Under the pieces are notes generated by a model. It was not told the DNA's origin and made no database searches. It saw only the letters and a program-made list of their open reading frames with translations. DNA of 64,000 bases from Gammaproteobacteria bacterium (GTDB lineage: Bacteria > Pseudomonadota > Gammaproteobacteria > Eutrophobiales > Eutrophobiaceae), in the NCBI GenBank assembly GCA_030829955.1, contig JAURNY010000022.1:12332-76331 (forward strand), read 5' to 3'. A program made the position numbers and the translations under genes. Below are positions 41,928 to 64,000 of the stretch, one piece after another. Every line of letters starts with the position of its first letter. Positions within the stretch are counted from its first letter, which is position 1.

Positions 41928-42668
41928 ATGATATTAAATAAAATAAAAACGGCATTTAAGAAGAATAATAAGCCACAGATATCAGAAACAGATGTGTTTG
42001 AGGGAAAAACATATGCAGAACGAGAACAATCAATTTTTGGTGAAGAACGTGTTTTGCAACAACGACTGTTTGAGAAATGGGCAGTCAAGGAGGAATGGCA
42101 TCTCAAGAACGAAGGTATAAAGCTGATATTAGCAATCGATCCGGCGCAAAAACATCATTTTGATACTGAGACGAAAGATAAAATAAATGATCTCTGGCTA
42201 CATGCAAAAGAGTGTGTAACTGATCATTTGCTTCAGGTTATTAATCCCGAAGAAAAGCCAGAAGCATGGCGTGTTAGTCCGGCTGCATTATACCGTTGGG
42301 CGAAGATAAGTCGTGTCAGTGTGCCAGCAGAACTATCTTCTTTAATGGATTTTGTTTTACAGACTATTTTGTCGACCGAACATGGTAATAACAATGATCA
42401 ACGACATAGTGATACAGGCAATACAGAACAATACAATTTACATAAAGAGATTGTGCTGGGGGCTTCATTGTCATTGTTAGCAAGCAAACCGGATGTTTGT
42501 AAAAGTCGTAGTGGTAAAATCAAGGCGAGACTTATTGCTGAAGAAATTACTAAAAACAGTAAAAATTGGTTTGAGGAAGAACCATTGCTGGCTCAAACTG
42601 CTATGCAGGATTTAATAGAACAATATTTGTTTAAAAGCCAAAATCCATTAAATCAATCAACTGATTGA
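41928..42668 (+). CDS. hypothetical protein (246 aa), co-directional with tilS and the DUF455 gene
   Basis: Long ORF beginning 4 nt after the DUF455 stop. No recognisable motifs. Confidence 0.5.
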   Translation: MILNKIKTAFKKNNKPQISETDVFEGKTYAEREQSIFGEERVLQQRLFEKWAVKEEWHLKNEGIKLILAIDPAQKHHFDTETKDKINDLWLHAKECVTDHLLQVINPEEKPEAWRVSPAALYRWAKISRVSVPAELSSLMDFVLQTILSTEHGNNNDQRHSDTGNTEQYNLHKEIVLGASLSLLASKPDVCKSRSGKIKARLIAEEITKNSKNWFEEEPLLAQTAMQDLIEQYLFKSQNPLNQSTD

Positions 42669-44158
42669 GGGGGTTTAGTTTTTTGCATTATAGTTGATTC
42701 TTCCTCTTCATGCTCAGGCGCATCTAAACTGAAGCTTAATAATATATCACCAATCTCTATGACATCACCTTCTTTAATTGTGGCGCGACCTATTTTTTCG
42801 CCATTCACATAAACCCCATTCATGGAATTCATATCGATAAGCTCGAATTCACCTGCAGAATCACGATGTACTTCAGCATGACGACGAGAAACCGAATTAT
42901 CATCCAGAATTAATTCATTATCTTTCCCTCTGCCTATGCGGCAGATTGTTCTCATTACAGGATAGCGGATATCTTTTTTGTCGTTATCTATAAGGTAAGC
43001 ATAAGGCTTATATTCATAAACTGGCGCTTTACTTTTTTTGTTTGCAGGGCGTTGCCACACTAAAAATAATGTTATTAGAATAAGTATAATGATGATGATG
43101 AATGCAGCGGGTACACCATACCATAACCATAAGTTGATTGGCTTCGCCTCGACCTGCTTTGTGATGATGGTGACCGGTGCAATATCCTCAGTTGGAATTT
43201 CAACATTAGTCGCTGTCTCAGATTGGTCATTATTCTTTATTGGTTCTATTGTAGTTTTTGCAAGTGGTAATTTTATAGGAATCAATAAGGAATCATTTTT
43301 ATCAATTAAAAGTTTGATTGCAGCTTTTTTATTTGATGTGTTGCTTAAATCCTCCAGAGATACAATAAACTGCCCGCCTGTAAATATATTATTTAAGGCT
43401 TTTCGAATATAGGTGTTTTCTAATTCGAGCGATTGATCGACTTCTTTAAATGTGCCGCCAGTTTCTTCACTCAATCGTCGTAATGTTTGTAAAGCAACAG
43501 ATAAGGAAACGGAACGAGGATAACCAATCGAATTAATTACAATACCTGTTTTTCTAGCAAGATTCACAACATCGGAGTGAAAATATGCAAGGTCCTCTGC
43601 CTGCCCATCAGAGAGTAATACCAAAACCTTGCGTGAAGCATCTTGTTCATCAAGATACTGCAATGCCTGTATTACATTTCGATATAGTTCGGTAGTTTTG
43701 CCACTAGCCTTTAGATTTGCTAATTGTTTTTTTAATAAAAAACTGGATTGTCCAAAAGGGGATTCTATACGAAAAGTTTTATCAAATACTGCCAGAGCGA
43801 AATTCAAACCTGCTTCTGAGGTATTATTGATTATGGCCTCAATATGTTTTTTATTTTTTTCGATGACATTCTGTCGGGCGGGATCACTTGTATCAACGAG
43901 AAATAATACGTCAACTGAATTATTTTTATCAGTAGAAAAACCGATATTCAAAAGTTGAATGGGTTTGCCAAGATATGATGCAGACAGATTATCAGGTTGT
44001 TGCTCGTTCAGTTTTCTGTATTCGCAAGTCAGTTTTGAATTTATTTGAGCGCATTGAAGATCGATATTATGTGTTAACTTTTGCCATGATGCAGCGTGTG
44101 TCGCGCCTGAAAATGATATAACCAATAATAAAATACATATTCTTTGGGCTAGCCGCAT
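42653..44158 (-). CDS. bitopic signal peptide-vWA-TM-FHA protein
   Basis: Signal peptide (SGATHA/AS). vWA core (VDVLFLVDTSDPARQ ... VLVLLSDGQAED). TM helix (LWLWYGVPAAFIIIIILILITLFLVW). C-terminal FHA (CRIGRGKDNELILDDNSVSRRHAEVH ... LIDMNSMNGVYVNGEKI). Confidence 0.8.
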   Translation of the reverse strand: MRLAQRICILLLVISFSGATHAASWQKLTHNIDLQCAQINSKLTCEYRKLNEQQPDNLSASYLGKPIQLLNIGFSTDKNNSVDVLFLVDTSDPARQNVIEKNKKHIEAIINNTSEAGLNFALAVFDKTFRIESPFGQSSFLLKKQLANLKASGKTTELYRNVIQALQYLDEQDASRKVLVLLSDGQAEDLAYFHSDVVNLARKTGIVINSIGYPRSVSLSVALQTLRRLSEETGGTFKEVDQSLELENTYIRKALNNIFTGGQFIVSLEDLSNTSNKKAAIKLLIDKNDSLLIPIKLPLAKTTIEPIKNNDQSETATNVEIPTEDIAPVTIITKQVEAKPINLWLWYGVPAAFIIIIILILITLFLVWQRPANKKSKAPVYEYKPYAYLIDNDKKDIRYPVMRTICRIGRGKDNELILDDNSVSRRHAEVHRDSAGEFELIDMNSMNGVYVNGEKIGRATIKEGDVIEIGDILLSFSLDAPEHEEEESTIMQKTKPPQSVD

Positions 44159-44178
44159 AATTGGATACTATGACATAG

Positions 44179-44691
44179 TTATTTGTCTGGAAATAACGGG
44201 TCAGGTAAATCGTAAAATTCAATATGTACGGACTTCATTCCCTGTTTTTCTTCAACAATTTGATTGAATGCATCATCAGGTTCTTTAAATTCGCCCAGCT
44301 GAGCAATGTCTTTTTCCATTTTAGCATTCACATTAATAATCTTTTGATGTAATTCATTTGAATACTCCAGCTTATACGAGCGAGGTTCACCTGTAGATGT
44401 CATATCCTTTATTTCTGTTAACCATAGATAAACATAGCCTTCATCGCCAGTTTCCTTGTTTGGTTGTGAGACATGTGCCGCAATTAATCTGAATTGTTGC
44501 GGCGGTAATTGAGTCGTTGGCCAACCAAGTAATGGAGGAAATGAAAAATAAACGATCAGGTAAAACGCTGAGGTCAGAATGATGGTAAATGCCTTCACAT
44601 ACCACGACCATTTTGAATATAAATTAATGCTTAATAATAATAAGCCCAGTAATATAAAAGCAGAAATAATGCCTGTGATTCCTATTGTCAT
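44179..44691 (-). CDS. 2-TM membrane protein of unknown function (operon member)
   Basis: Two N-terminal hydrophobic helices, then a roughly 100-aa soluble domain. 20 to 24-nt spacing to both neighbours. Confidence 0.55.
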   Translation of the reverse strand: MTIGITGIISAFILLGLLLLSINLYSKWSWYVKAFTIILTSAFYLIVYFSFPPLLGWPTTQLPPQQFRLIAAHVSQPNKETGDEGYVYLWLTEIKDMTSTGEPRSYKLEYSNELHQKIINVNAKMEKDIAQLGEFKEPDDAFNQIVEEKQGMKSVHIEFYDLPDPLFPDK

Positions 44692-44715
44692 AATAATTTT
44701 ATTCCAAAGTTTAAT

Positions 44716-45309
44716 TTATCCTAAAATAACTAAATTTTTAGGGAGAAAGTTAATACCAAAAATTTCACCATCTCGACCAATACTAAAACGTAACGCTGTT
44801 TTTTCGTCACCTTTTTTCTCAAGATTTATAATGCCGTAATACACGACTTCGAGTTTCGGGTTGACCTTGACAAGCCTGACATTTACATCAACAGGTTTTT
44901 CTGTTTCAGAGCCATAGTAATGCAAGTTAACAACATACTCACCTTTAACTACACCACGAAGTGTTACCACTTCCTGATTAAGTGGATTCTGTACTTCTTC
45001 TCCATTTATAGTGATCGTATCATTGACCAGACCACGGTCATCTCGATCAAGATGTAACAAACCTGCTTCAGGCGTTCTGAACCAGACAATCTGACCCTCA
45101 GGATCTTCTACCCATACATCAATATCATCAGGACTAAAATCATCCCACGTGATGGTAAGAATGTATTCCGCTTTCGGATCAATAATCCCTGATTTTGCCT
45201 CAGGATTCATGAACATGATTGCTACCAGAAACAAGAAAGTAAAACCCAATAGGGCATTAAACAATAAATCTGTGAACGGATCGGAACGAAATCGATTTTT
45301 TACACTCAT
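44716..45309 (-). CDS. ExbD/TolR-signature bitopic protein with unrecognised beta-rich periplasmic domain
   Basis: N-terminus RSDPFTDLLFNALLGFTFLFLVAIMFM parallels the ExbD/TolR P-[FL]-x-D-[VLM] plus TM signature. Compare TPLIDMVFILLIFFLV of the ExbD at 61291-61692. It starts 5 nt after the MotA/ExbB-like gene. Confidence 0.55.
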   Translation of the reverse strand: MSVKNRFRSDPFTDLLFNALLGFTFLFLVAIMFMNPEAKSGIIDPKAEYILTITWDDFSPDDIDVWVEDPEGQIVWFRTPEAGLLHLDRDDRGLVNDTITINGEEVQNPLNQEVVTLRGVVKGEYVVNLHYYGSETEKPVDVNVRLVKVNPKLEVVYYGIINLEKKGDEKTALRFSIGRDGEIFGINFLPKNLVILG

Positions 45310-45314
45310 GATAA

Positions 45315-46058
45315 TTATTGTTCAATTTTTGAAAGAACATGTACCTGCGTTAAATGACGTATCATTTCAATTAATTCATCTGCATGTCTGTCAAGCATAT
45401 GATATTGCAGTGCTGATAATACGCTACCGATTAAACCTATAAGAGTAGTATATAGCGCTGTACCCATGCCGGTACTCATATTTTTAAGAATTTTCTGCAT
45501 GGAGCTGACATCAAAATCAGCAATATTAGCTACAGAGCCCAACATGAATATAAAGCCAATAATAGTGCCTAATAACCCCATCTTTAACATCATGTCAGAC
45601 ACAAACCAGCCAATTTCCTGAGGGCCTTTTAAGCGAGATTCATAGACTTCAATCAGATCAACAGAAGCGGAATCATCATTTTGTTTGTTACTGGTCTGAT
45701 TTCGATAATAGATATCGCCAATATATTCAGACATAAAACAAGCTGGCAGTTTAGTGGTGGAGTTAATAATAACCGTTTCGTCTTCACCAACAGATACAGT
45801 AATGTTTTTTTCTTTTTTAATTAATTTTTCAACCTGCATAGACAAGTTAGTTTGTAATGACATTGTATAAATACGGTATGCGCAATGTATTGTTACTAAT
45901 ATATAGATAAGTGTAATTGCCCATGAAATTCGACTTTTGTCCACGGCAAACAACATGGCAATAATGTCCTGTTCCCAGGCAATTATTAATGAAAAGATAA
46001 TGAGACCCGTTAGGATCATCCATTTCAAGAAGAGTATATGTTCAGGTTTATCATTCAT
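45315..46058 (-). CDS. MotA/TolQ/ExbB proton-channel family protein (2+2 TM, MotA-like topology)
   Basis: C-terminal channel motifs MGLLGTIIGFIFMLGSV and STGMGTALYTTLIGLIGSV match the two ExbB paralogues in this window (LLGLLGTVTG.. / ..ALL.TT.GL). Confidence 0.8.
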   Translation of the reverse strand: MNDKPEHILFLKWMILTGLIIFSLIIAWEQDIIAMLFAVDKSRISWAITLIYILVTIHCAYRIYTMSLQTNLSMQVEKLIKKEKNITVSVGEDETVIINSTTKLPACFMSEYIGDIYYRNQTSNKQNDDSASVDLIEVYESRLKGPQEIGWFVSDMMLKMGLLGTIIGFIFMLGSVANIADFDVSSMQKILKNMSTGMGTALYTTLIGLIGSVLSALQYHMLDRHADELIEMIRHLTQVHVLSKIEQ

Positions 46059-46554
46059 ATTCTAAAATTTCTGTAGTGTTTGGTTGAACATTAAAAGGGT
46101 CATTGGATGCTACATATTCTATCATTGACCTCAATATTATATTGATTTTTTTCGCAATGTTATCCAGATTTACATTATCTGTAGATTCCGGTAATAAGTG
46201 GGTGCTTAACACTATTTCATTATTTTTTACAAATACAGCAATTTTGTAAGGGCAATAATTGATATATTGAGGTTCAATTTTCAACATATCCTCAGCAAGA
46301 GACAAATTACAAAACAAAATAACTTCATTATCAGGAAAGTCAACAATACCTCTATCCTGTATAGCCTCACCTATATGTAACCTGCCAGTAATGCGAAAAT
46401 TATATTCAGTTATAATAAATTCTATATCCTGAAGCACATCTGTAAACTGTTTGCTTGTTGATTTTTCATAGAAAGTTGGAGCCGTTTTATCACACCCCGT
46501 AATAATAAAAAAAGTTAATAATATAACGATTTTATAAGGTAGTTTAATGAACAT
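46051..46554 (-). CDS. DUF302-domain lipoprotein
   Basis: Lipobox FIITGC. The pattern F..V...IE..I.E.NF.I ... VILFCN ... P..INYCPYKIAVF.. is typical of DUF302. Confidence 0.6.
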   Translation of the reverse strand: MFIKLPYKIVILLTFFIITGCDKTAPTFYEKSTSKQFTDVLQDIEFIITEYNFRITGRLHIGEAIQDRGIVDFPDNEVILFCNLSLAEDMLKIEPQYINYCPYKIAVFVKNNEIVLSTHLLPESTDNVNLDNIAKKINIILRSMIEYVASNDPFNVQPNTTEILEYE

Positions 46555-46585
46555 TTATTTATTTCATCATATATCAGTAGATTTA

Positions 46586-47158
46586 CTATTCTGCGATAAC
46601 GACTTGAGTACCAACATCGACAAACTTTTTTAATTCCTGAATTTCTTCATTGGTTAACGCAATACAGCCCTCTGTCCAGTCTGTATTTTCATGAATAGCG
46701 AGTTTTTTTTCTGTAGTGGTTCCAATGCCATGAATACCGATAAATCCACCTAACTCGGTATCTTGTGGTGGAATCCTTCTTTGCTTGTAGGCATTTGCAA
46801 TTTTTTTGAATTCTGCAGAATCGATAATCTTATTTTTATAACCATACCAGGCGTCGTTCAGGTTTGGGTAATCAAGCTGCATGAAATAATGAAAACGATC
46901 ACTATCTTTTAAACTTAAAATGCGATAGGTGCCGATTGGTGTTTTGCCATCCCCCTGACGACGTTTAGTGCCTTTGCCTCCTATGCCGCTGGATATTTTA
47001 TAGCGTTTAACAACTTTGCCGGATTTTTCCAGAATCAATTCCTTGTTCTTTTTGGAGATGCGAATTTGGTAATCGTTTGCAGATACAGCAGGGGAGACAA
47101 GGATAAGGTTGAAACCTAGGGAAATAATGACCCCGAATTTTATTAGAATTTTTATCAT
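46586..47158 (-). CDS. L,D-transpeptidase (YkuD) family protein
   Basis: Signal peptide. Catalytic block IGIHGIG ... TEGCIALTNEE (His ... Gly-Cys). Confidence 0.8.
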   Translation of the reverse strand: MIKILIKFGVIISLGFNLILVSPAVSANDYQIRISKKNKELILEKSGKVVKRYKISSGIGGKGTKRRQGDGKTPIGTYRILSLKDSDRFHYFMQLDYPNLNDAWYGYKNKIIDSAEFKKIANAYKQRRIPPQDTELGGFIGIHGIGTTTEKKLAIHENTDWTEGCIALTNEEIQELKKFVDVGTQVVIAE

Positions 47159-47244
47159 CGAACTTTTGTATGCGCTTAATTAACTCTAGATTCTAGGTAA
47201 TTATTTTTAAAATTTCATCCCGAATTGCAGTTGTACGCCAGACA

Positions 47245-47272
47245 TAAAAAAAGGGGCTATAGCCCCTTTTTT
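47245..47272. terminator. rho-independent terminator downstream of pqqA (symmetrical A/T tracts)
   Basis: aaaaaaaGGGGCTatAGCCCCtttttt begins 20 nt after the pqqA stop. Confidence 0.8.
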
Positions 47273-47440: not shown

Positions 47441-47456
47441 AGCATAAATCGCGCCA
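47441..47456 (-). promoter_or_regulatory. sigma-54 (-24/-12) promoter candidate for pqqA
   Basis: The minus strand reads TGGCGCGATTTATGCT against consensus TGGCACGrNNNTTGCW, with correct GG-N10-GC spacing. It is about 75 nt upstream of the pqqA ATG and next to a sigma-54 activator gene. Confidence 0.5.
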
Positions 47457-47577: not shown

Positions 47578-49050
47578 ATGTCTGGCAAGAGCAGCAAATC
47601 CCTAAAAAATCTAATATTTGGTCATGAAATCGCTATTTTGCTATTGATTACCATTACCGGATTAACGGGTGGAGCGTCAGCGTATTTCTGGCAACAAAAT
47701 TCCGCAGAATCTGTTCGAATCAATGCCATGTTTTATTTCACAGAGCAGATTCGCGGTGAAATGTATGCGCAAATACAGGAAATGATCAGGGCAAGGGTAT
47801 TAGAAGATCAAAATGCCTTTGATTCTTATTTAGAGTATTCAAGCATAATATCCGAGCGATTTAATGAACTGCGGCGACGTTCTAACTCGCACGAAGAAGA
47901 TATGGCTATTCAGGATCTGAATCTTTCCTATCGTGAGATACAGCGTGATATGAACAATCTGTTCAATGATCCTTACATATCCAATCGTCTTTCCCAGATA
48001 CAGTTACTAAATCCCCAGTTTGCACAACGTATGGTAGGAAAATTTGAACAACATTATGTTAAATTTAAAGAGTTATTATCAAAACAACATGACGAATTGG
48101 ATGAAACATTGGCAGCGTGGACGAAGTTTGCTCCTTTCGCCATTTCAATACCGATTATTATTGTTTTAATCATTGTTATTTATACACGTCAGGTCATGCG
48201 TAATGAGTTTATTAAACCGATTCGCAATATTATGCGTGGCGCAAAAGAAATTAGTCAGGGTGATCTGGATTATCAAATAGAAGAAGTTGGTGTAGAAGAG
48301 GTGGCAACACTGGCAGAAGCTATCAATAAGATGGCAAGAGAATTATCTGAATCCAGAGATGCTATAGTAGAAAACGAACGACAGGCTGCTTTAGGAACGT
48401 TGGTGCCGGTAGTTGCACATAATATTCGTAATCCATTGGCAAGTATTAGGGCGACTGCACAACTGTTAGAACATGCAGAAAATCAGAATGACATTATCGA
48501 ATCAAAAGAAGAAATTATTTCGACCATTGATCGTTTGGGTCGTTGGGTGAGTGCATTAGTATCTTATCTACATCCTCTTAAACCAAACTTGATAGATGTA
48601 TACCCAGTTGATTTGATAAATGCTGCTTTAAGTCTGGTCAATAACAAGATAGAAGAAAAACAGATCAGTATTAATAAAAAAGATTGGGAAAATAATCTTA
48701 AATTATCAGCTGATCCGGATTTAATGGAACAGGCGCTTTTTAGTTTGATATCCAATGCGGTTGATGCGACTCCGAGACAAGGTGATATCACGATCAGTTT
48801 AAGCCATCCCGAAGATTATATTGAGATACATATACTTGATAGTGGACCAGGTTTACCTTTTCAACCTAAATCCGGAAATCTGGAACCCGGACCATCAACC
48901 AAACGCATGGGAACTGGTCTCGGTATTCCAATCGCTTTTAAAATCTGCCAGAAACATGGCTGGAATTTAAACTTTGTAATTCACGAAGGAGAGGGAACTG
49001 AAGTCATTATTTCCGCTCCCTTACATACAATTTCTGAGGTAAATGAATAA
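47578..49050 (+). CDS. sensor histidine kinase (2 TM, HAMP, HisKA, HATPase_c)
   Basis: H-box VAHNIRNPLASI, N-box LISNAVDA, G-boxes DSGPGL and GTGLGIP. Confidence 0.9.
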   Translation: MSGKSSKSLKNLIFGHEIAILLLITITGLTGGASAYFWQQNSAESVRINAMFYFTEQIRGEMYAQIQEMIRARVLEDQNAFDSYLEYSSIISERFNELRRRSNSHEEDMAIQDLNLSYREIQRDMNNLFNDPYISNRLSQIQLLNPQFAQRMVGKFEQHYVKFKELLSKQHDELDETLAAWTKFAPFAISIPIIIVLIIVIYTRQVMRNEFIKPIRNIMRGAKEISQGDLDYQIEEVGVEEVATLAEAINKMARELSESRDAIVENERQAALGTLVPVVAHNIRNPLASIRATAQLLEHAENQNDIIESKEEIISTIDRLGRWVSALVSYLHPLKPNLIDVYPVDLINAALSLVNNKIEEKQISINKKDWENNLKLSADPDLMEQALFSLISNAVDATPRQGDITISLSHPEDYIEIHILDSGPGLPFQPKSGNLEPGPSTKRMGTGLGIPIAFKICQKHGWNLNFVIHEGEGTEVIISAPLHTISEVNE

Positions 49051-50453
49051 TGCAGGGTTTTGATAATTATTCAGCGCAAGTCCCAGTGATTCAAACACAA
49101 GTATTGCTTGTTGAAGATGAGACAGTATTTGCAAAGGCTGTTAGAAAGCATTTGCAGCGACAGGATTATCAGGTGAATGTTGCAGGAGATTTGGAAACGG
49201 CTGGAAGGTTGTTTAAAGAAAAAACGCCGGATTTAATATTGCTTGATATGCGCTTGCCAGATGGATCGGGTCTGGATTTATTAGAAGAATTTAACAACTC
49301 GAACAATAATGTACCGATAATTGTAATGTCCGCCTATGGTGAACTGGAAGATGCTGTTTCTGCGATGAAACTTGGGGCATCAGATTATTTGAAGAAACCC
49401 GTAGATCTGGATGAGTTATCTTTAAACATTCGTAAGGTTCTGGATAAGAATGAGATCTCTAAAAAGCTCACTTATTCAAACAAGCGCGAACAACACGCTG
49501 TTGAATCAGTCGAGTTTCTGGGTGATTGCAAGGCAATCAACTCAATCAGGAAGCAAGTGCAGCGTATAGCACATTTATCTCAGAAAACTTCTGTTATTCC
49601 ACCAACTGTTTTAATCCTGGGAGAAACAGGTACTGGCAAGGATGTCGTTGCCCGATTATTACATGCCAACAGTAATCGCATGGATAAACCTTTTGTGCAT
49701 GTTGATTGTGCATCACTTCCCAAAGATTTGATTGAATCAGAATTATTCGGCCATGAAAAAGGAGCATTCACAAATGCACATGTCGCTCGTACGGGGTTAA
49801 TTGAAGCTGCTGAAGATGGCGCGTTATTTCTGGATGAAATTGGTGAGTTACCTTTAGACCTGCAATCAAAATTATTAGCCGTTCTGGAACGACGGACGTT
49901 ACGTCGAGTTGGCACCACACAGGAAAGACCTGTCGCTGCATGGATAATTGCAGCAACCAATCGTGATCTAGAAAGTCTCTCTGATAGAGGTGAATTTCGT
50001 TCAGATTTGTTTTATCGATTGAATGTAATGTCACTCACCATGCCTCCTTTAAGAGAACGCGGTGATGATATTTTATTACTTGCGAACCATTTTGCTGCGC
50101 AAACAGTTCGTCGATATGGTCTGGACATTGAAGGTTTTGATAGCAGCGCCAAAGCAGCATTACTTGAGTATGACTGGCCTGGCAATGTTAGAGAGATGAA
50201 ACATTTATTAGAACGTGCTGTATTACTTAGCGGTGGAGGAAAAATAGGCCGCGACATACTGAATCTGGACATGTCAGAAAAATCATCTGGTGAATTAGCT
50301 AAACTGGATGAAGATATGACACTTGGCGATGCTGAATTACAACTAATCAAACAGGCACTGGATAGAACAAATCACAATGTATCCAAGGCTGCCAGAGAAT
50401 TAGGAATTACACGTATGGCATTACGTTATCGCATTAAGAAATATGATTTGTAA
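49050..50453 (+). CDS. sigma-54-dependent response regulator (NtrC/Fis family)
   Basis: Receiver domain (DLILLDMRLPDGSG), AAA+ domain (GETGTGKDVVA, EKGAFTNA, ESELFGHE region, LFLDEIGEL), C-terminal Fis HTH. ATG overlaps the kinase stop by 1 nt. Confidence 0.9.
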   Translation: MQGFDNYSAQVPVIQTQVLLVEDETVFAKAVRKHLQRQDYQVNVAGDLETAGRLFKEKTPDLILLDMRLPDGSGLDLLEEFNNSNNNVPIIVMSAYGELEDAVSAMKLGASDYLKKPVDLDELSLNIRKVLDKNEISKKLTYSNKREQHAVESVEFLGDCKAINSIRKQVQRIAHLSQKTSVIPPTVLILGETGTGKDVVARLLHANSNRMDKPFVHVDCASLPKDLIESELFGHEKGAFTNAHVARTGLIEAAEDGALFLDEIGELPLDLQSKLLAVLERRTLRRVGTTQERPVAAWIIAATNRDLESLSDRGEFRSDLFYRLNVMSLTMPPLRERGDDILLLANHFAAQTVRRYGLDIEGFDSSAKAALLEYDWPGNVREMKHLLERAVLLSGGGKIGRDILNLDMSEKSSGELAKLDEDMTLGDAELQLIKQALDRTNHNVSKAARELGITRMALRYRIKKYDL

Positions 50454-59362: not shown

Positions 59363-60574
59363 TTAACTTGCTTGTTTACTAATATTTTTCAAATAATCCA
59401 GCCACCACCTAGCCTGATCAGCGGTGCTTTTATCATTTAACGCGCGGTTAAAGGCATTTACAGCAAGATTCGTCTTATTTAAATTATAATTGGCAATACC
59501 CAATAAAAGATTAATATTAGCCAATAGAGATTTATCATCAGTCTTAATATCTGCGGTTAATATTGATGCTGCTTCCTGCCATTGTTCGTATTCTATGTAT
59601 AAACGCCCTAGTCTTAGTCGAGTCTTATTGTCATTGAAACTCTGAACGATCTCTCGAAATAAACTCTTGGCTTTTTCGTTTTCTTTCGACAACAGCCAAC
59701 TGTCAGCAAGTAATATCAGGTTTTTTTGATTTTCAGAAACGTTACCTATCGCTAATTCCTTTTCGAGTAGCTTTGCTGATTTTAGTGGTATTTCCATATA
59801 TAAATACATTCTGGCAAGATCGACAATTTCCTGTTCATTCAATAATTCATATTGATAGGCCATTTCAAATGCAGCTAGTGCTTTATTTTCATTTTTTCCT
59901 TCCTGATAAAGTCCGGCTAACTGCAGCCAATAGTCTTTATTATCTGGATGGCTAACCAGAATTTTTTCCAAGATGGTAGCTGCTTTACTAAATTCTTTTT
60001 GCTCATAGTAAGCAGCAAGCAATAAGTTATACCAATCAAGTGGGGGGTTAGCTGATTTACTCAGTGCTTTTTCTATCTGTAAGATTAATTGAGCATAATC
60101 TTTTAATTGATAGTAGGCCGATGCTGCAACTATATGGCTCTCTGCGCTTGCCTCTGCTTCATTAGCAAACCATTGGGTAAGATAGTTAAGCCCTTCTTTA
60201 GCTCGATCTAAGTGTATAAGTATTTTTGCTATAGCGTAACGAAGATCATGTGTTACTTTATCTGGCAGGATGTTTAACGATAAGGCTTGTTGGAAGGCAT
60301 TAGCAGCAGCTGCAAAATCACCTAGCGCATTTTCAACATAACCTAATGTTTGATAAGCCACTGCCTTGTCATATGCGGGCAGTTCTTCTTTTTTTAGCAT
60401 GATATCCAGTTTTAATTTTGCACTTTTGTATTCAAACTTTTCCATGTCTTCCTGAGCTTTTGATAAAATAGCATAATTATCAGATTGAAGTTTTGCTCCA
60501 TCTTCTGCAGGCACAGATATAGCAGCTGTTAGTAGCAACATGCAAAATAAAACTATTTGGCGTATGTTAATCAT
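59363..60574 (-). CDS. TPR-repeat protein of TonB2-type cluster (TtpD-like)
   Basis: Signal peptide plus multiple TPR repeats. ATGA overlap with the tonB stop. Confidence 0.7.
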   Translation of the reverse strand: MINIRQIVLFCMLLLTAAISVPAEDGAKLQSDNYAILSKAQEDMEKFEYKSAKLKLDIMLKKEELPAYDKAVAYQTLGYVENALGDFAAAANAFQQALSLNILPDKVTHDLRYAIAKILIHLDRAKEGLNYLTQWFANEAEASAESHIVAASAYYQLKDYAQLILQIEKALSKSANPPLDWYNLLLAAYYEQKEFSKAATILEKILVSHPDNKDYWLQLAGLYQEGKNENKALAAFEMAYQYELLNEQEIVDLARMYLYMEIPLKSAKLLEKELAIGNVSENQKNLILLADSWLLSKENEKAKSLFREIVQSFNDNKTRLRLGRLYIEYEQWQEAASILTADIKTDDKSLLANINLLLGIANYNLNKTNLAVNAFNRALNDKSTADQARWWLDYLKNISKQAS

Positions 60575-61269
60575 CTTTGTAAGGAAAACTTGATATCTTG
60601 TCGGGCGCGCTTTTCAACCGGTTTACCATCAACCATGTCGGGATTAAATTTCCATTTTTCTATTGCATTCAGTACAGCCTGATTAAATATTTTTGCCGGT
60701 TTGGCCTTGATGATTTCAGCATCCTTTACTGACCCATCTGTTTTGATTGTAAATTCAACGGTAACAACGCCTTCTATACCTGAACGCAGTGCACGAGGAG
60801 GGTAGATCGGAGGAACTCGTAATGTTGGTTTTACATTTATATCGACCTTGGGTTTTATGGATGCTCCTGCTCCAATTGATGAACGAGTATTTTTTGCAAA
60901 GTCACCAAGATAAGGTGTGCCGCTAACTGCTAATGGTATATCTAGTGATGGCATACTCATTTCCATCTCGACAGTAGCCGGTTTTTCAATCTGTGGATCA
61001 AACATGTCAGGGGGAGGGGGCTCTTCCTCAACTTCAGGCGGTTCCAGTTCTTCTATATTATCCTGTTTGATTTTCTGTTCTGGCGTTTCCCTCAGGCGAA
61101 CAAAATCAACCATATTGATATTATTTGCAATTTGGTCAAACGAAATTTCCTTGCTAACGAGTTTCTGAATCAATATAAAAATGGCGATATTGAATATGAT
61201 CGCCATAATTAAATAAACAGGAATTCGTAAGACAGAATTTACTGTTGGATTAATGACGCTCATAGTCAA
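60571..61269 (-). CDS. tonB: energy transducer TonB
   Basis: N-terminal TM anchor, Pro/Glu-rich spacer (EELEPPEVEEEPPPPD), C-terminal TonB domain (YPPRALRSGIEGVVTVEF.I..DG). Confidence 0.85.
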   Translation of the reverse strand: MTMSVINPTVNSVLRIPVYLIMAIIFNIAIFILIQKLVSKEISFDQIANNINMVDFVRLRETPEQKIKQDNIEELEPPEVEEEPPPPDMFDPQIEKPATVEMEMSMPSLDIPLAVSGTPYLGDFAKNTRSSIGAGASIKPKVDINVKPTLRVPPIYPPRALRSGIEGVVTVEFTIKTDGSVKDAEIIKAKPAKIFNQAVLNAIEKWKFNPDMVDGKPVEKRARQDIKFSLQR

Positions 61270-61290
61270 TTACAATGCTTAAGCTCCTGA

Positions 61291-61692
61291 TCATTCAGTC
61301 GAAGCGGCAATAGAAATATTAGTAACACCGGCAAGACGCACCTGATCAAGTACATCAACAGTTATACCTGTTCGGGCACTTTTATCTGCAAGAATGATGA
61401 TCGTTCCTTCAGGATTTTGTGCATACTGATGTTCAACGTGTGCACGTACTGCGCGCAATTCAATTTGATTATTCTCTATCCATATTTTGCCGTCTTTGGT
61501 AATTCCAATAATCATACTGCCTTGTTCTTCTCGAACTGCAGTTTGAGCAGTGGGTCGATCCACTTCAATACCAGACTCCTTTGTAAAGGATGATGTTACT
61601 AGAAAGAAAATAAGTAGTATAAACACCATGTCAATTAATGGCGTTAGATTGATATTTTCAACCGTGTTTTCTTGTGTATGTGTTCTTCTCAT
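61291..61692 (-). CDS. exbD: biopolymer transport protein ExbD/TolR
   Basis: INLTPLIDMVFILLIFFLV signature. 133 aa. Confidence 0.9.
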   Translation of the reverse strand: MRRTHTQENTVENINLTPLIDMVFILLIFFLVTSSFTKESGIEVDRPTAQTAVREEQGSMIIGITKDGKIWIENNQIELRAVRAHVEHQYAQNPEGTIIILADKSARTGITVDVLDQVRLAGVTNISIAASTE

Positions 61693-61694
61693 AA

Positions 61695-62207
61695 TTAATT
61701 ACTAAATTGTTCCTTGGCTTTAAGCTCTTTGTTTTTTACGCGATTACTTAGATCAGAGCCAATATATATACCAATAATTGACGTTACGAGCCCTGCTGTT
61801 GTTGGCAATAATGCACGGGAGATCCCATCCGCCATGCCGCGTGCGTTACCTGTTCCAAACACATTCATTACATCAAAGATAGCAATCATACCTGTTACCG
61901 TTCCAAGCAAACCTAATAACGGAAGAACTGCTGTAATTGCTTTTATTGGAGCGAGGTTATGTTTAAGTTCTATAGACAGTTCTGTTAATAAACTATCGCG
62001 AATTTTATAGGCATATAAGGAAGACTGGTCTTCTCTGAAGTGCCATTTGTTAACAATCTCTTCTAGGGTTTTAGGATAAACACGAAAAATGTACCAGTAC
62101 CGTTCAAGTATTAATATCCATAATAAAAGTGATAGAAAAAAAACACCTATAAGGACAGGGCCGCCCTTACCAAAAAACTCAAGCATGATGTCAATTTGGT
62201 CCAACAT
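61695..62207 (-). CDS. exbB: MotA/TolQ/ExbB proton channel protein (ExbB)
   Basis: 3-TM protein with LPLLGLLGTVTGMI and ALLPTTAGL motifs. ATG at 62207 lies 1 nt after the upstream stop; the track start at 62261 is inside the upstream gene. Confidence 0.9.
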   Translation of the reverse strand: MLDQIDIMLEFFGKGGPVLIGVFFLSLLLWILILERYWYIFRVYPKTLEEIVNKWHFREDQSSLYAYKIRDSLLTELSIELKHNLAPIKAITAVLPLLGLLGTVTGMIAIFDVMNVFGTGNARGMADGISRALLPTTAGLVTSIIGIYIGSDLSNRVKNKELKAKEQFSN

Positions 62208-62208
62208 G

Positions 62209-63552
62209 TTATTTTTTGTTTCTCTCGGCAAACATGGCAACAAAGGCTGTGCTTTTTTCATCTAGAATCTGAATCAAGCTGTTACTACGTGACAACAAAA
62301 AACTGTGCAATAATAATAATGGAATGGCAACAACCAGCCCCAAAACTGTGGTAACCAATGCCTGTGAAATACCACCTGACATCACACGAGGGTCGCCAGT
62401 TCCGTAAAGGGTAATGGATTGAAATGTTTCAATAATACCGGTTACGGTACCCAATAAGCCAAGTAATGGTGTAACAGACGCGAGTAATACAATTGTGCTT
62501 AAACCACGTTTTATTGGGGGTATTTCCTTTAAAATGGCTTCATCAAATTTTAAACCTAATGTCTCGGTATCGACCTCACGGTTTTTAATATACACCTTCA
62601 TAATTCGACCTAATGGATTATTACCAGCATTATTGTCTTTAAGTTGTTTGGCTACTTTTCTACTGGTAATGGTCAACATAATTAAACGTTCCAGTGATAT
62701 TAATAGACCGACAATACCGAGAAATAAAATGATATAACCTACAATGCCCCCTTGCTCGATTCTGTTTTTTAGATCAGGTAGCTGAACCAGAAGTGCCAAC
62801 ATCGCACCACGCGTAGGATCGACAGGGAAGGCGACAAAGCCACTATTGGTGTTTTCAAGTTCCATTGCGGCTTTCTGAAAACTTGGACTAGGTTGTCTGC
62901 CAGGTTCAATCAATTTGCCAGTTTCAGGTAGATTACGTAAATAACGTCCGGCAGAAACAGCATTAAAGACGCCAACCCTGGTAATTGTTTGTTCAATTTC
63001 ATTACCGGCAGCAGTTACGATAGTGCCTTTAAATTTTACTACTTTGCCGGATTCAACCATTTCATCCATTGCCAGTAGCCAGAGGTCTTCCAGTTCTTGT
63101 AATGCAGGCAATTCTTTACTGCTCGAGAGAGTGTCCAGTATTTCATCACGTTCCGTTTTTTGCGCTGACACAAATGAGTTGTCAATGATACTGTCGAGAT
63201 CACCAGCAATCTGTTTAACAATGCCGTCAAGCTCTCCCAAAGCGCCCATCTTCTCTTTTAATGTGCTTTGTTGAGCATTAATCAGACGTTCGTTTTGTTC
63301 ATAAAGTTGTTTCAGACGTTCGCTGTCTTGTTCGAGACTTTGTAATTTGTTTTTGGCATTACTGAGTAATTGTTCTTGTTTATCGCGTGCTTCTTTAAAA
63401 CGTGCTTCACGTTCAGCCAATTCTTTTTTCTCGGTAGATCGTTCCTGTTTAACCTGTTCAAGCAGTTGAACAAGCGAACTAGGTTCTGCCTGTAATGAGG
63501 AACAGGATAAGAATATAAATATAAAGATGACGTTTAATATTATTTTAAACAT
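62209..63552 (-). CDS. large MotA/TolQ/ExbB-family protein with periplasmic coiled-coil N-domain (TtpC-like)
   Basis: Signal peptide, a roughly 250-aa coiled-coil/soluble region, then an ExbB core (PLLGLLGTVTGII, ALVTTVLGLVVAIP). This architecture is known from Vibrio TonB2 systems. Confidence 0.85.
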   Translation of the reverse strand: MFKIILNVIFIFIFLSCSSLQAEPSSLVQLLEQVKQERSTEKKELAEREARFKEARDKQEQLLSNAKNKLQSLEQDSERLKQLYEQNERLINAQQSTLKEKMGALGELDGIVKQIAGDLDSIIDNSFVSAQKTERDEILDTLSSSKELPALQELEDLWLLAMDEMVESGKVVKFKGTIVTAAGNEIEQTITRVGVFNAVSAGRYLRNLPETGKLIEPGRQPSPSFQKAAMELENTNSGFVAFPVDPTRGAMLALLVQLPDLKNRIEQGGIVGYIILFLGIVGLLISLERLIMLTITSRKVAKQLKDNNAGNNPLGRIMKVYIKNREVDTETLGLKFDEAILKEIPPIKRGLSTIVLLASVTPLLGLLGTVTGIIETFQSITLYGTGDPRVMSGGISQALVTTVLGLVVAIPLLLLHSFLLSRSNSLIQILDEKSTAFVAMFAERNKK

Positions 63553-63555
63553 AGT

Positions 63556-64000
63556 CTACTCCGTCACCTGTATTGGTAGTTTCACCAGATCGGGCGGCGC
63601 CTGTTTATTTGCAATCTGCAATCCTTTCTGTATTGACCTGTGATATTCAGAACCTAGTATTTCCCATTTTTTGGTTTCACGATTCCATGCGCCACTTACT
63701 TCAGCATCCAGAGTTTGGAAGGCCATGGTTAATCGACCAACGCGTAATAAATCGACGGTATAGTCGATGCCATTAACCTGCACTGTGTCATTATAGGCTT
63801 CAATTGTGCGACCATATTCCATTTCAATTTGATAGGCTTCCATGATGCGGCGATATTTATCCGGTAAAGTTACGTCAGGACGGTCCATCATTTCCTGTAA
63901 GGCTGCCACACGTTGTTGACGCTCATCTAGTAGAAATGGTATATCCAACGCAACAAATTGTTCCAAAGTGCTAATCATTTTTAGCATTAAAGGGACTATA
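63556..64000 (-). CDS. DUF3450-family protein (TtpB-like), C-terminal part; 5' end outside window
   Basis: Frame is open to the window edge. The gene sits in the conserved position upstream of the large ExbB-like gene in TonB2-type clusters. Confidence 0.6.
   Translation of the reverse strand, partial: IVPLMLKMISTLEQFVALDIPFLLDERQQRVAALQEMMDRPDVTLPDKYRRIMEAYQIEMEYGRTIEAYNDTVQVNGIDYTVDLLRVGRLTMAFQTLDAEVSGAWNRETKKWEILGSEYHRSIQKGLQIANKQAPPDLVKLPIQVTE

Follow-up and report, generated by a model that had tools for sequence, protein, structure and literature searches.

Three adjacent genes, encoding a MotA/ExbB-family protein of 247 amino acids and two proteins here called p197 and p170, stand in the same order in bacterial chromosomes and in phages. 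They form the core of an operon in a 64,000-nucleotide stretch of gammaproteobacterial DNA (the window), and this triad, smaller than the six genes proposed earlier, is the functional unit. On balance we lean towards reading it as a new ion-driven membrane motor complex of the 5:2 type from an undescribed MotA/ExbB branch, in which the 247-aa protein would be the channel-forming A subunit, p197 the B subunit and p170 a third, obligate subunit, its gene placed as tonB and tolA are after their motor genes. No description of the triad was found in the literature searched, and its occurrence in chromosomes as well as phages points to an unstudied energy-coupled envelope machine.

The operon and its conserved core

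The preliminary description had set out six closely packed minus-strand genes as one unit, and the ORF list reproduces exactly both the genes (Table 1) and their junctions of 31, -8, 5, 24 and 20 nt, the stop of the DUF302 gene overlapping the start of the A subunit gene by 8 nt. No convincing terminator was found inside the operon. Upstream of its leader, at about 47270-47245, lies the terminator hairpin GGGGCTATAGCCCC followed by a T-run. A pattern scan gives a candidate promoter before the YkuD gene (ATGAAA-17-TAGAAT, 9/12 matches), which is weak evidence because promoter-like sites in the region are in total no more numerous than in shuffled sequence. Homologues exist for every one of the six ORFs, and 37 of 80 species-representative genomes show all six in this order, so they are real genes rather than chance ORFs, and Pfam matches bear out each of the earlier domain calls (YkuD, DUF302, MotA/ExbB, vWA plus FHA).

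Table 1. Features of the operon and its leader (positions in the window)
Feature	Positions	Strand	Length or content	Source
YkuD-fold gene	46586-47158	-	190 aa	ORF list
DUF302 lipoprotein gene	46051-46554	-	167 aa	ORF list
MotA-like A subunit gene	45315-46058	-	247 aa	ORF list
p197 gene (B subunit candidate)	44716-45309	-	197 aa	ORF list
p170 gene (C subunit)	44179-44691	-	170 aa	ORF list
vWA-TM-FHA gene	42653-44158	-	501 aa	ORF list
Leader, pqqA terminator to YkuD start	47159-47244	-	candidate sigma-70 promoter 47218-47190	

The gene neighbourhood holds in other genomes, but what is conserved as a unit is the triad. The order A-B-C (MotA-like, p197, p170) is found in 80/80 species-representative genomes of Gamma-, Alpha- and Deltaproteobacteria and Nitrospirae and in 84-85 of 86 viral loci, while the neighbours vary from locus to locus. 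All 80 genome loci have the A subunit gene, as do 84/86 viral loci, and the p170 gene follows the p197 gene in all 83 loci scanned and in 85/86 viral loci. GenBank holds 29 Rhizobium/Sinorhizobium phage records with the triad, phage 16-3 included. In many lytic and temperate phages it forms a self-contained cassette in varying genomic contexts, with terminase, head protease, primase and DNA polymerase genes among its neighbours; in RHph_N34 and 16-3, both isolated phages, it is surrounded by genes for DNA replication and repair, not by structural genes.

The three accessory genes (YkuD, DUF302 and vWA-FHA) are restricted to one gammaproteobacterial clade and are missing from 19/80 genome loci and all viral loci. 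Of the 83 loci scanned, 60 have the YkuD gene and 23 do not, and every viral locus lacks it, so a dedicated YkuD enzyme is not essential; the DUF302 gene occurs in 47/83. This patchiness would be expected if the six genes were not one system at all, the triad being an independent cassette, possibly phage-derived, and the accessories, histidine kinase (HK) and sigma-54 regulator (RR) being merely co-inherited vertically. The flank tilS, accA, dnaE, DUF455, HK and RR is indeed co-conserved in the genomes that hold the accessories, and since these belong to one clade with the whole tilS-accA-dnaE neighbourhood conserved, accessory synteny could reflect descent rather than function; the neighbouring HK/RR pair, moreover, is a likelier regulator of the pqqA-like ORF with its sigma-54 promoter. 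We nonetheless consider this reading rather unlikely in view of the short junctions without a convincing internal terminator. In addition, vWA-FHA homologues diverged to 26-53% identity, some at only 35-39%, still stand directly after p170, the three accessories are all envelope proteins whose YkuD, DUF302 and vWA parts carry export signals, and YkuD and DUF302, or vWA-FHA, are gained and lost in blocks that abut the triad directly. In the motor model, the module of this clade would have acquired the YkuD enzyme, the DUF302 lipoprotein and the vWA-TM-FHA protein, and phage carriage of the bare triad makes the phosphothreonine-reading end a lineage-specific addition, not the essence of the system.

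Subunits of the triad

The 247-aa protein matches Pfam MotA_ExbB (E 4e-10; 40 bits, cut-off 22.9), and two pore-lining Gly/Thr motifs, LGLLGTxxGF (G161, G164, T165, G168) and GMxTALxTT (A201, T205, G208), are invariant in bacterial and phage A subunits and in the window's own ExbB, which upholds its assignment to the MotA/ExbB channel family. The protein spans the membrane about four times, and residues 66-150 or so form a cytoplasmic insert. Phage A subunits (138-190 aa) lack this insert, and because they are almost without a cytoplasmic part, the motor most likely does its work on the periplasmic side.

Neither p197 nor p170 has a family match in Pfam, NCBIfam, PADLOC or PHROGs. Clustering at 50% identity yields 1779 clusters for the p197 family. 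The protein has one TM segment, at its N-terminus (residues 15-33 by hydropathy), in an unusually conserved helix of the transpore type (F.DLLFN.L..F...F). Asp14, within the F.DLLFN motif, is kept by all viral and 99% of bacterial members (163 sequences together), and hhalign places it in register with the Asp of the window's ExbD, at E 0.003 and a probability of 10% over 18 residues only. The AF2 model (pLDDT 91.6) has a helix at 11-33 and beta strands within 49-187, giving an all-beta periplasmic domain whose acidic cluster (D62, D64, D90, D91, D97, E113) is invariant; no PDB fold matches the model. Weak matches to PPC, DUF2135 or ExbD come from a few members of the family, those to Pfam ExbD from 2/69. 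The earlier description of p197 as ExbD-like thus holds for the Asp-bearing N-terminal helix and not for the periplasmic domain: beyond the helix, p197 is without ExbD homology. In the proposed motor the Asp helix would sit inside the A ring and bind the ion, and the all-beta domain would stand in for an ExbD/TolR/MotB-type domain, with an acidic cluster that may bind metal. The pairing, in the preliminary description, of a MotA/ExbB-family channel with a following protein that has an ExbD/TolR-type Asp helix stands.

In p170, a hairpin of two TM segments, which hydropathy also supports, is followed by a small alpha/beta domain; from there a disordered linker leads to the conserved tail DLPDPxxP[DE]K with its final Lys. 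Its AF2 model, of medium confidence (pLDDT 75.7), has helices at 2-25 and 30-50, and shows neither a PDB fold match nor likeness to the C-terminal domains of TonB or TolA; an SHLS/His motif is also missing from p170. By charge count the hairpin loop is net positive, and this charge distribution favours a periplasmic C-terminus, so that the hairpin would probably present the small domain and the Pro-rich tail in the periplasm. The last residue is Lys in 76 of 82 bacterial members, against a background of 5%. The LPxK motif is conserved in the phage versions too, where the Lys is often followed by one to six residues.

Comparison with known motors

ExbB-ExbD-TonB and TolQ-TolR-TolA are 5:2 motors driven by the proton-motive force, each with a third, force-transducing inner-membrane protein. 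The triad resembles both in its A subunit (Pfam MotA_ExbB, Gly/Thr pore motifs), in the single N-terminal Asp helix of p197, which aligns in register with that of ExbD, in the order motor-motor-third membrane protein and in a probably periplasmic output. It departs from ExbB/TolQ in an A subunit of about four TM helices that in phages has only about 140-190 aa, from ExbD/TolR in that p197 is an all-beta sandwich instead of an alpha/beta fold and itself has no Pfam ExbD match, and from TonB/TolA in the two TM helices and LPxK tail of p170, which has no SHLS motif or TonB_C/TolA domain; nor does the operon include a TBDT, TolB or Pal partner. The preliminary description had listed the usual motor outputs as absent, and searches of the operon and its neighbours with Pfam, NCBIfam and PADLOC agree, giving no TonB, TolA, Pal, OmpA/MotB, flagellar, gliding or ZorC/D partner. 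It had also failed to map the operon to a characterised system, and here too no match was obtained in Pfam, NCBIfam, PADLOC, PHROGs, PDB sequence and fold searches or the literature.

Could the triad simply be a housekeeping system of the Tol-Pal or Ton kind? In that case p170 would be the counterpart of TolA/TonB, powered by the A-B motor and not covalently bound to peptidoglycan, and it would act on a partner in the outer membrane or periplasm (the vWA protein, or the DUF302 or a DUF3108-like lipoprotein), with outer-membrane stabilisation or transport as the output. The order A-B-C(-lipoprotein) mirrors tolQ-tolR-tolA(-tolB-pal) and exbB-exbD-tonB; in distant genomes one to three lipoprotein genes directly follow p170, a DUF3108-like lipoprotein replacing vWA-FHA, DUF302 and YkuD; and every accessory protein is exported. 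A force-transducing role has also been proposed for vWA proteins encoded beside tolQ-like motors (Mol Biol Evol 2025, PMC12204202). The likelihood of such a system is nevertheless fairly low, as p170 has two TM helices, lacks the SHLS/His motif and is folded unlike the C-terminal domains of TonB or TolA. No partner gene is common to all loci and none is found in phages, so p170 would need a target that every host possesses. Furthermore, a full, separate TonB2-type ExbB/ExbD set, already reported earlier, is present in the window at 59363-63987 (DUF3450, two MotA_ExbB proteins, ExbD, TonB_C and a TPR protein).

The phage linkage recalls Zorya ZorAB, likewise a MotA/ExbB-like channel that is neither flagellar nor Ton, and the A subunit has weak PADLOC matches to ZorA (best E 2e-6). 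A Zorya-type anti-phage or superinfection-exclusion system, whose motor senses or blocks phage penetration of the envelope, would let chromosomal copies defend the cell and phage copies exclude competing phages; a self-contained cassette in many phages and varying contexts is what defence and exclusion genes often are, and the RHph_N34 and 16-3 triads lie among replication and repair genes, not structural ones. The ZorA matches, however, span shared channel motifs only, and the triad has no long ZorA tail, ZorB with its peptidoglycan-binding domain, ZorC/D, nuclease or other effector. Unlike Zorya, it is a module that phages carry in their own genomes and that the bacterial clade passes on vertically. 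All species sampled from the window's lineage have the operon at one constant position, flanked by housekeeping genes, and its G+C content is like that of the surrounding DNA, a pattern of core function and not of a defence island. We regard a Zorya-type role as unlikely.

GldLM, the type IX secretion and gliding motor, is also of the 5:2 type and has a B subunit with one TM helix and beta-rich periplasmic output domains. In contrast, p197 has a single compact beta domain without sequence or fold match to GldM, the third subunit of the triad is obligatory, and no T9SS genes are present.

Accessory proteins and a possible wall link

The YkuD protein (Pfam YkuD, E 1e-22) has a signal peptide by hydropathy. 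It had been called an L,D-transpeptidase; the YkuD fold stands, but the protein is closest to the hydrolytic DpaA/LD-carboxypeptidase branch, its best NCBIfam match being LdtF_DpaA_YafK (a partial match, its 42 bits lying below the equivalog cut-off of 365) and its closest solved structure 8IKR (E 2.3e-8), with the catalytic GC motif aligned. 8IKR is E. coli DpaA, which cuts the Lpp-Lys-mDAP bond made by LdtA-C (PMC10653827, PMC8263019). p170 is likewise small with a C-terminal Lys, and its operon includes this DpaA-related enzyme. Tentatively, and with the chances against it, p170 may be joined through its last residue, Lys, to meso-DAP of the peptidoglycan, as Braun's lipoprotein is, the DpaA-like enzyme making or removing the link, and p170 would then serve as a wall anchor or force-transmitting arm for the motor. 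p170 differs from Lpp in being held in the inner membrane by two helices, not as an outer-membrane lipoprotein, and has no sequence similarity to it; the phage Lys, often non-terminal, fits poorly with a strictly Lpp-like C-terminal attachment of this putative kind.

The DUF302 protein (Pfam, E 2e-9) has a signal peptide with the lipobox ITG|C. The 501-aa protein is bitopic with a periplasmic vWA and a cytoplasmic FHA domain, as first described: hydropathy gives a signal peptide and one TM segment (349-367), and Pfam matches VWA at residues 83-248 (E 6e-15) and FHA at 406-470 (E 2e-20). Its gene stands, like those of the vWA force transducers (PMC12204202), beside a non-canonical MotA/TolQ-like motor of Proteobacteria. 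In those families the vWA domain follows an N-terminal TM helix (SHLS type) or is itself the Asp-bearing transpore subunit, whereas here it follows a signal peptide and precedes a TM helix without Asp or His and then the FHA domain; the Asp helix is on a separate protein, p197, and most of the family does without the vWA protein.

In Myxococcus, vWA adhesins work with Tol/Exb-like motors (PMC9946355), and GltG is among the NCBIfam FHA matches (E 1.8e-15). A surface adhesion or gliding machine, its motor moving the vWA protein as Agl-Glt moves CglB with FHA as a GltG-like scaffold, is still very improbable, given that the GltG match is limited to the FHA domain (56 bits, with the cut-off at 650), Pfam and NCBIfam reveal no further Glt/Agl genes, the vWA domain is fixed to the inner membrane instead of being exposed on the surface, and vWA-FHA is absent from most of the family, phages included.

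In the motor model, the vWA-TM-FHA protein could connect Ser/Thr-phosphate signalling in the cytoplasm with the periplasmic side; no Ser/Thr kinase motif was found in the window. The family conserves DTSDP (MIDAS-like), G.TTELYR, SDG.AED and a Cys36/Cys45 pair, together with the FHA motifs RIGR, S.SRRHAE and S.NG. The FHA domain carries the canonical phosphothreonine-binding residues and is closest to GarA, OdhI and Rv1827 (E 1e-19).

Layout and conservation of the locus

Six minus-strand genes had been described as a proton-motor operon of unassigned function, separate from a TonB2-type set, and the ORF list reproduces both their coordinates (Table) and their junctions of 31, -8, 5, 24 and 20 nt. 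Their G+C content (0.34-0.37) is like that of the surroundings in the window. The calls of a YkuD protein, a DUF302 lipoprotein, a MotA/ExbB-like protein (hereafter the A subunit) and a vWA-TM-FHA protein are borne out by Pfam and hydropathy, and the separate TonB2-type cluster does exist. For the two remaining proteins, p197 (the candidate B subunit) and p170 (the candidate third subunit), Pfam, NCBIfam, PADLOC and PHROGs gave no match, so that none of these profile collections places them in a characterised system.

Table. Features of the window and of related loci (L-numbers designate fetched homologous loci in other genomes or phages; positions without an L-number are those of the window)
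Feature	Position	Strand	Content or basis
YkuD protein, 190 aa	46586-47158	-	ORF list, Pfam
DUF302 lipoprotein, 167 aa	46051-46554	-	ORF list, Pfam
MotA_ExbB A subunit, 247 aa	45315-46058	-	ORF list, Pfam
p197, 197 aa	44716-45309	-	ORF list
p170, 170 aa	44179-44691	-	ORF list
vWA-TM-FHA protein, 501 aa	42653-44158	-	ORF list, Pfam
246-aa protein	41928-42668	+	Convergent with vWA-FHA gene, 3' ends overlapping by 16 nt
Hairpin terminator, strong	~47245-47270		3' of pqqA-like ORF
pqqA-like ORF, 24 codons	47292-47366	-	MKWETPAYSDIRFGFEVTMYINNK; Glu-x-x-x-Tyr motif; between histidine kinase gene and operon
Sigma-54 motif	47441-47456	-	TGGCGCGATTTATGCT; correct spacing; ~90 nt upstream of pqqA-like ORF start
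HAMP histidine kinase and NtrC-family sigma-54 response regulator	47578-50453	+	Divergent from operon
TonB2-type cluster	59363-63987	-	DUF3450 (cut by window end), 447-aa MotA_ExbB, 188-aa ExbB, ExbD, TonB_C, TPR
Strand switch	~20000-22000		Gene orientation minus to plus near 21 kb
DUF3108-like lipoprotein tandem	L053, L057, L065-L083; e.g. L074 9162-11379		After triad
Tandem p170 paralogues, 174 and 172 aa	L044 2952-4015		Between p197 and vWA-FHA genes
Rhizobium phage RHph_N34 EVC06_145/146/147	L088 3537-5026		Short MotA_ExbB protein / p197 homologue / two-TM p170 homologue
Phage 16-3 p038/p040/p042	L089 3271-5132		Roles as EVC06_145/146/147
Azospirillum brasilense chromid NZ_CP059450.1	L176 4303-6147		Divergent triad

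The p197 family is large and unnamed, with 3813 matches in a 90%-clustered database, and at 50% identity it falls into 1779 clusters. With each GTDB species represented by a single genome, a scan that used a 12-sequence alignment as the query returned at least 566 relatives, of which 80 loci were fetched; ORFs called in these loci were searched with iterated HMMs from the window proteins. The loci come mainly from uncultured marine Gammaproteobacteria, along with Alphaproteobacteria, one Deltaproteobacterium and one Nitrospirae MAG, and their cultured carriers include Methylohalomonas lacus and Spectribacter hydrogenoxidans. Genes for a MotA-like protein, p197 and p170 stand in this order and on the same strand in 80/80 of these species-representative loci, while all six genes are found together in only 37, the YkuD gene plus this triad only in 15, and the triad without any of the three accessories in 19. 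In distant genomes, between one and three tandem genes come after p170; they encode lipoproteins of ~235-290 aa with weak DUF3108-like similarity, which may be lineage-specific periplasmic or outer-membrane partners of the triad. On the basis of these gene-set counts and the different followers of p170, the conserved unit is the triad, and the YkuD, DUF302 and vWA-FHA proteins are accessories of one gammaproteobacterial clade. The observation in the preliminary description is confirmed, and its interpretation is partly supported.

Within its clade the vWA-FHA protein evolves rapidly (26-53% identity), yet its gene lies directly 3' of p170 even in members at 35-39% identity. The neighbourhood of tilS, accA and dnaE is also conserved in this clade, and therefore descent alone could explain part of the synteny. 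In one related genome, two p170 paralogues stand in tandem.

Predicted subunits and known motor systems

The A subunit scores 40 bits against Pfam PF01618 (MotA_ExbB; gathering score 22.9, E 4e-10), and distant bacterial A subunits as well as the phage members L086 and N34 also lie above the threshold. In an alignment that includes the canonical ExbB of the window, the pore-lining motifs are common to both: LGLLGTxxGF and GMxTALxTT in the last two TM helices, in which G161, G164, T165, G168, A201, T205 and G208 are invariant. Asp40, located between the first two helices, is family-specific. Against PDB sequences, the matches to TolQ are only marginal. By threshold and pore motifs, the A subunit belongs to the MotA/TolQ/ExbB channel family.

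What, then, is the partner of this channel? The preliminary description had called p197 ExbD-like. Like ExbD/TolR (PF02472), p197 has a single N-terminal TM helix (hydropathy) with a conserved Asp: the helix F.DLLFN.L..F...F is unusually conserved, and all viral sequences and 99% of the bacterial ones have Asp14 (n=163). hhalign pairs Asp14 with the conserved Asp in the ExbD of the window, but in an alignment of 18 columns only, with an E of 0.003 and a probability of only 10%. This likeness ends at the helix, however: p197 has no whole-protein profile match and no counterpart of the alpha/beta periplasmic domain of ExbD/TolR, and its AF2 model (pLDDT 91.6) consists of a helix (11-33) and an all-beta domain (49-187). 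Weak PPC, DUF2135 or ExbD profile matches occur in a few family members, ExbD in 2/69 only. Single-sequence and profile searches against PDB sequences gave nothing significant, and neither these nor a Foldseek comparison of the model with PDB folds, which had no match below E 0.009, returned ExbD, TolR or MotB. The label ExbD-like can accordingly be kept for the N-terminal Asp helix and dropped for the periplasmic domain. The invariant residues D62, D64, D90, D91, D97, N111 and E113 suggest a metal site in p197.

p170 has two TM segments (hydropathy). Its AF2 model, for which the alignment was built from database matches, has a pLDDT of 75.7 and comprises two helices (2-25, 30-50) and a small alpha/beta domain, with residues 139-154 disordered; Foldseek against PDB folds found no match below E 0.009 and no TonB/TolA fold. 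When the models of p197 and p170 were searched against BFVD, only uncharacterised viral proteins were matched (TM-score ~0.4-0.48), and no family or fold relative of either protein is known. The loop of the p170 hairpin holds ~1.9 K/R and no D/E and the N-tail is uncharged, which favours a predicted periplasmic location of the C-terminal domain. The protein ends in a conserved tail, DLPDPxxP[DE]K, whose Lys is the last residue in 76/82 bacterial p170 sequences and 99/120 database homologues, as against 5% in 1113 neighbouring ORFs. In phage p170 proteins the motif LPP.KLP[DE]K is retained, and 24/85 end in its Lys.

Among the accessories, the YkuD protein has a signal peptide (hydropathy) and a Pfam YkuD domain at residues 30-188 (E 1e-22). 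Its nearest NCBIfam model is LdtF_DpaA_YafK and its closest relatives are DpaA and Csd6; the TEGC motif aligns to the catalytic SIGC of DpaA. The closest solved structure, 8IKR (E 2.3e-8), is that of E. coli DpaA, an amidase that releases Braun's lipoprotein by splitting its C-terminal Lys from meso-DAP, a bond made by LdtA-C (PMC10653827). The YkuD protein can thus be assigned to the YkuD-fold L,D-transpeptidase superfamily as a predicted enzyme. The DUF302 protein (Pfam E 2e-9) carries the lipoprotein signal ITG|C (hydropathy). The 501-aa protein consists of a signal peptide, a vWA domain (Pfam, residues 83-248), a TM segment at 349-367 (VPAAFIIIIILILITLFLV, without Asp or His) and an FHA domain (Pfam, 406-470). 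The vWA domain has a MIDAS-like DTSDP motif, in which Pro replaces the second Ser, and a conserved Cys pair that is consistent with a periplasmic location. The phosphothreonine-binding residues GR, SxxH and NG of the FHA domain are kept as RIGR, S.SRRHAE and S.NG across 37 family members, and its closest solved relatives are the phosphothreonine readers GarA, OdhI and Rv1827 (E 1e-19 to 1e-17). The domain has the sequence features of phosphothreonine-binding domains and is a predicted binder. A Hanks-kinase catalytic motif was not found within the 64-kb window.

To our knowledge, few outputs of the MotA/ExbB 5:2 motor superfamily are known, namely flagella, Ton, Tol, gliding/T9SS and Zorya. 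In working outline the triad is like ExbBD-TonB and TolQRA, but neither the operon nor its flanks encode TonB_C, TolA, TolB or Pal, TonB_C occurring only in the TonB2-type cluster, and none of the six proteins has an OmpA-family match in Pfam or NCBIfam. A Ton, Tol or flagellar stator was therefore rejected, since the partners are missing. Zorya systems combine a ZorA that has a long C-terminal tail with ZorB and the effectors ZorC/D (or ZorE, ZorF/G). Zorya was rejected for want of effectors: the A subunit gave only local ZorA matches to the channel region (best E 1.9e-6; 247 aa versus profiles of 461-699), and the other five proteins have no PADLOC match to Zor components. As for Agl-Glt, a match to GltG reached 56.5 bits against a cut-off of 650 and covered the FHA domain only, and other Glt/Agl genes were not found. 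These searches of Pfam, NCBIfam and PADLOC agree with the earlier statement that the operon holds no partners of these systems. When tested for an ExbD/TolR periplasmic domain, MotB/OmpA, Ton, Tol-Pal, Zorya and Agl-Glt, the module fails in every case. In the two vWA force-transducer families proposed in 2025, the periplasmic vWA domain comes after an N-terminal TM helix of either the SHLS/His or the Asp transpore type (PMC12204202); the topology of the window protein is the opposite, which sets it apart from them. A survey of MotAB relatives from 2025 pools those without a flagellar role as heterogeneous "generic ion transporters", and its abstract and one of its sections do not describe the triad (PMC12505986).

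The triad in phages and a possible output

Distant p197 family members led to contigs of phage-like content, with genes for ribosomal protein S21, HSP20, ClpS, PRPP synthase, RecA-like protein and PhoH. In tblastn searches of GenBank phages, every query retrieved the identical 29 Rhizobium/Sinorhizobium phage records, which comprise at least four genome types: 154-kb Pootjesviridae (e.g., RHph_N34 and P10VF), one 171-kb phage, 68-kb phages and the 60-kb 16-3 group. All triad genes of RHph_N34 and 16-3 are annotated as hypothetical, and in the rhizobiophages the triad sits among replication/repair genes, e.g., those for a late sigma factor and a DNA repair exonuclease. A scan of IMG/VR revealed at least 164 viral contigs with relatives, of which 80 loci were fetched. 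Among the 86 viral loci counted, 84-85 have the triad and none has the YkuD, DUF302 or vWA-FHA gene; the flanks vary among at least eight backgrounds and include terminase, head maturation protease, primase and DNA polymerase. Compared by identity clustering, p197 has a mean identity of 44% among viral sequences, 70% within the sampled bacterial clade and 40% between the two. We found no description in the literature of phage-encoded MotA/ExbB-like motors or of the triad itself, and a comparative paper on jumbo phages mentions neither ExbB, TolQ, MotA nor protons.

The branch that the triad would add to the 5:2 ion-driven motors is widespread: it comprises 1779 clusters at 50% identity and was seen in at least 566 species genomes and at least 164 contigs of IMG/VR, as well as in the genomes of 29 isolated phages. 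We consider it slightly the better bet that it forms a MotA/ExbB-type motor complex with p197 as the B subunit and p170 as the third subunit. In such a complex the A subunit would form the ring, presumably a pentamer that encloses a B-subunit dimer and allows ion-driven rotation. p197 would be the axle, which carries the Asp and has a novel beta-sandwich as its head in the periplasm, and p170 would be a third subunit, its gene standing where that of TonB or TolA would. Phage A subunits (~140-190 aa) are without the cytoplasmic insert of the bacterial form (around residues 66-150) and so have almost no cytoplasmic mass, for which reason the output would most likely be periplasmic. A minimal ion-motor module encoded by phages is unexpected, and its presence suggests an unstudied periplasmic task for which viruses draw on the membrane energy of the host.

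How could such a motor engage the envelope? The invariant terminal Lys of p170 and the adjacent DpaA-like enzyme suggest that p170 may be tethered to peptidoglycan like Lpp, to act as an anchor or force arm. That this Lys is linked to peptidoglycan we regard as rather unlikely; the tail might instead dock into the acidic cluster of p197. If the peptidoglycan link is true, the Lys tail and the DpaA-like enzyme would provide the first motor component attached covalently and reversibly to the cell wall. Still less probable, in our estimate, is the joint reading in which the triad represents a phage-disseminated, unrecognised class of ion-driven 5:2 envelope motors: its B subunit would bear a metal-binding beta-sandwich in place of the ExbD/MotB domain, YkuD-fold enzymes would attach its third subunit to peptidoglycan by a covalent and reversible link at the C-terminal Lys, the minimal phage version would remodel or lock the host envelope in infection (e.g., for superinfection exclusion or control of the wall-membrane link), and a single lineage of proteobacteria would have domesticated the module, with the vWA-TM-FHA protein as its connection to Ser/Thr-phosphate signalling. 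What is new here is a variant of a known machine type, with an unexpected phage distribution and a testable peptidoglycan-tether hypothesis.

Experimentally tractable carriers are Sinorhizobium phage 16-3 (p038-p042), the Rhizobium phage RHph_N34 group and Azospirillum brasilense, a cultured and genetically tractable alphaproteobacterium. The triad of the latter scores better with viral than with bacterial profiles; there are two matching places per record, and the PLSDB record carries no annotation at this position.

Neighbouring genes

The histidine kinase and sigma-54 response regulator genes co-occur with the locus in ~50 related genomes, and in 30 related loci the pqqA-like ORF is kept beside the histidine kinase gene. 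That this pair controls the operon was considered and rejected: the pqqA-like ORF has the only well-spaced sigma-54 motif in front of it and a strong terminator behind it, and several relatives have an intervening cytochrome b561 gene. The motif and the terminator make pqqA the more likely target, and the pair probably controls pqqA, with the motor genes as further targets at most.

The 246-aa protein, which has no Pfam or NCBIfam match, is encoded at the same position in 28 related loci; because some of these are without the vWA-FHA gene, it probably lies outside the motor system. Farther away, GC skew turns from negative to strongly positive at the strand switch near 21 kb, and its cumulative minimum in the window lies at 18-20 kb; the switch may be replication-related or purely transcription-related.
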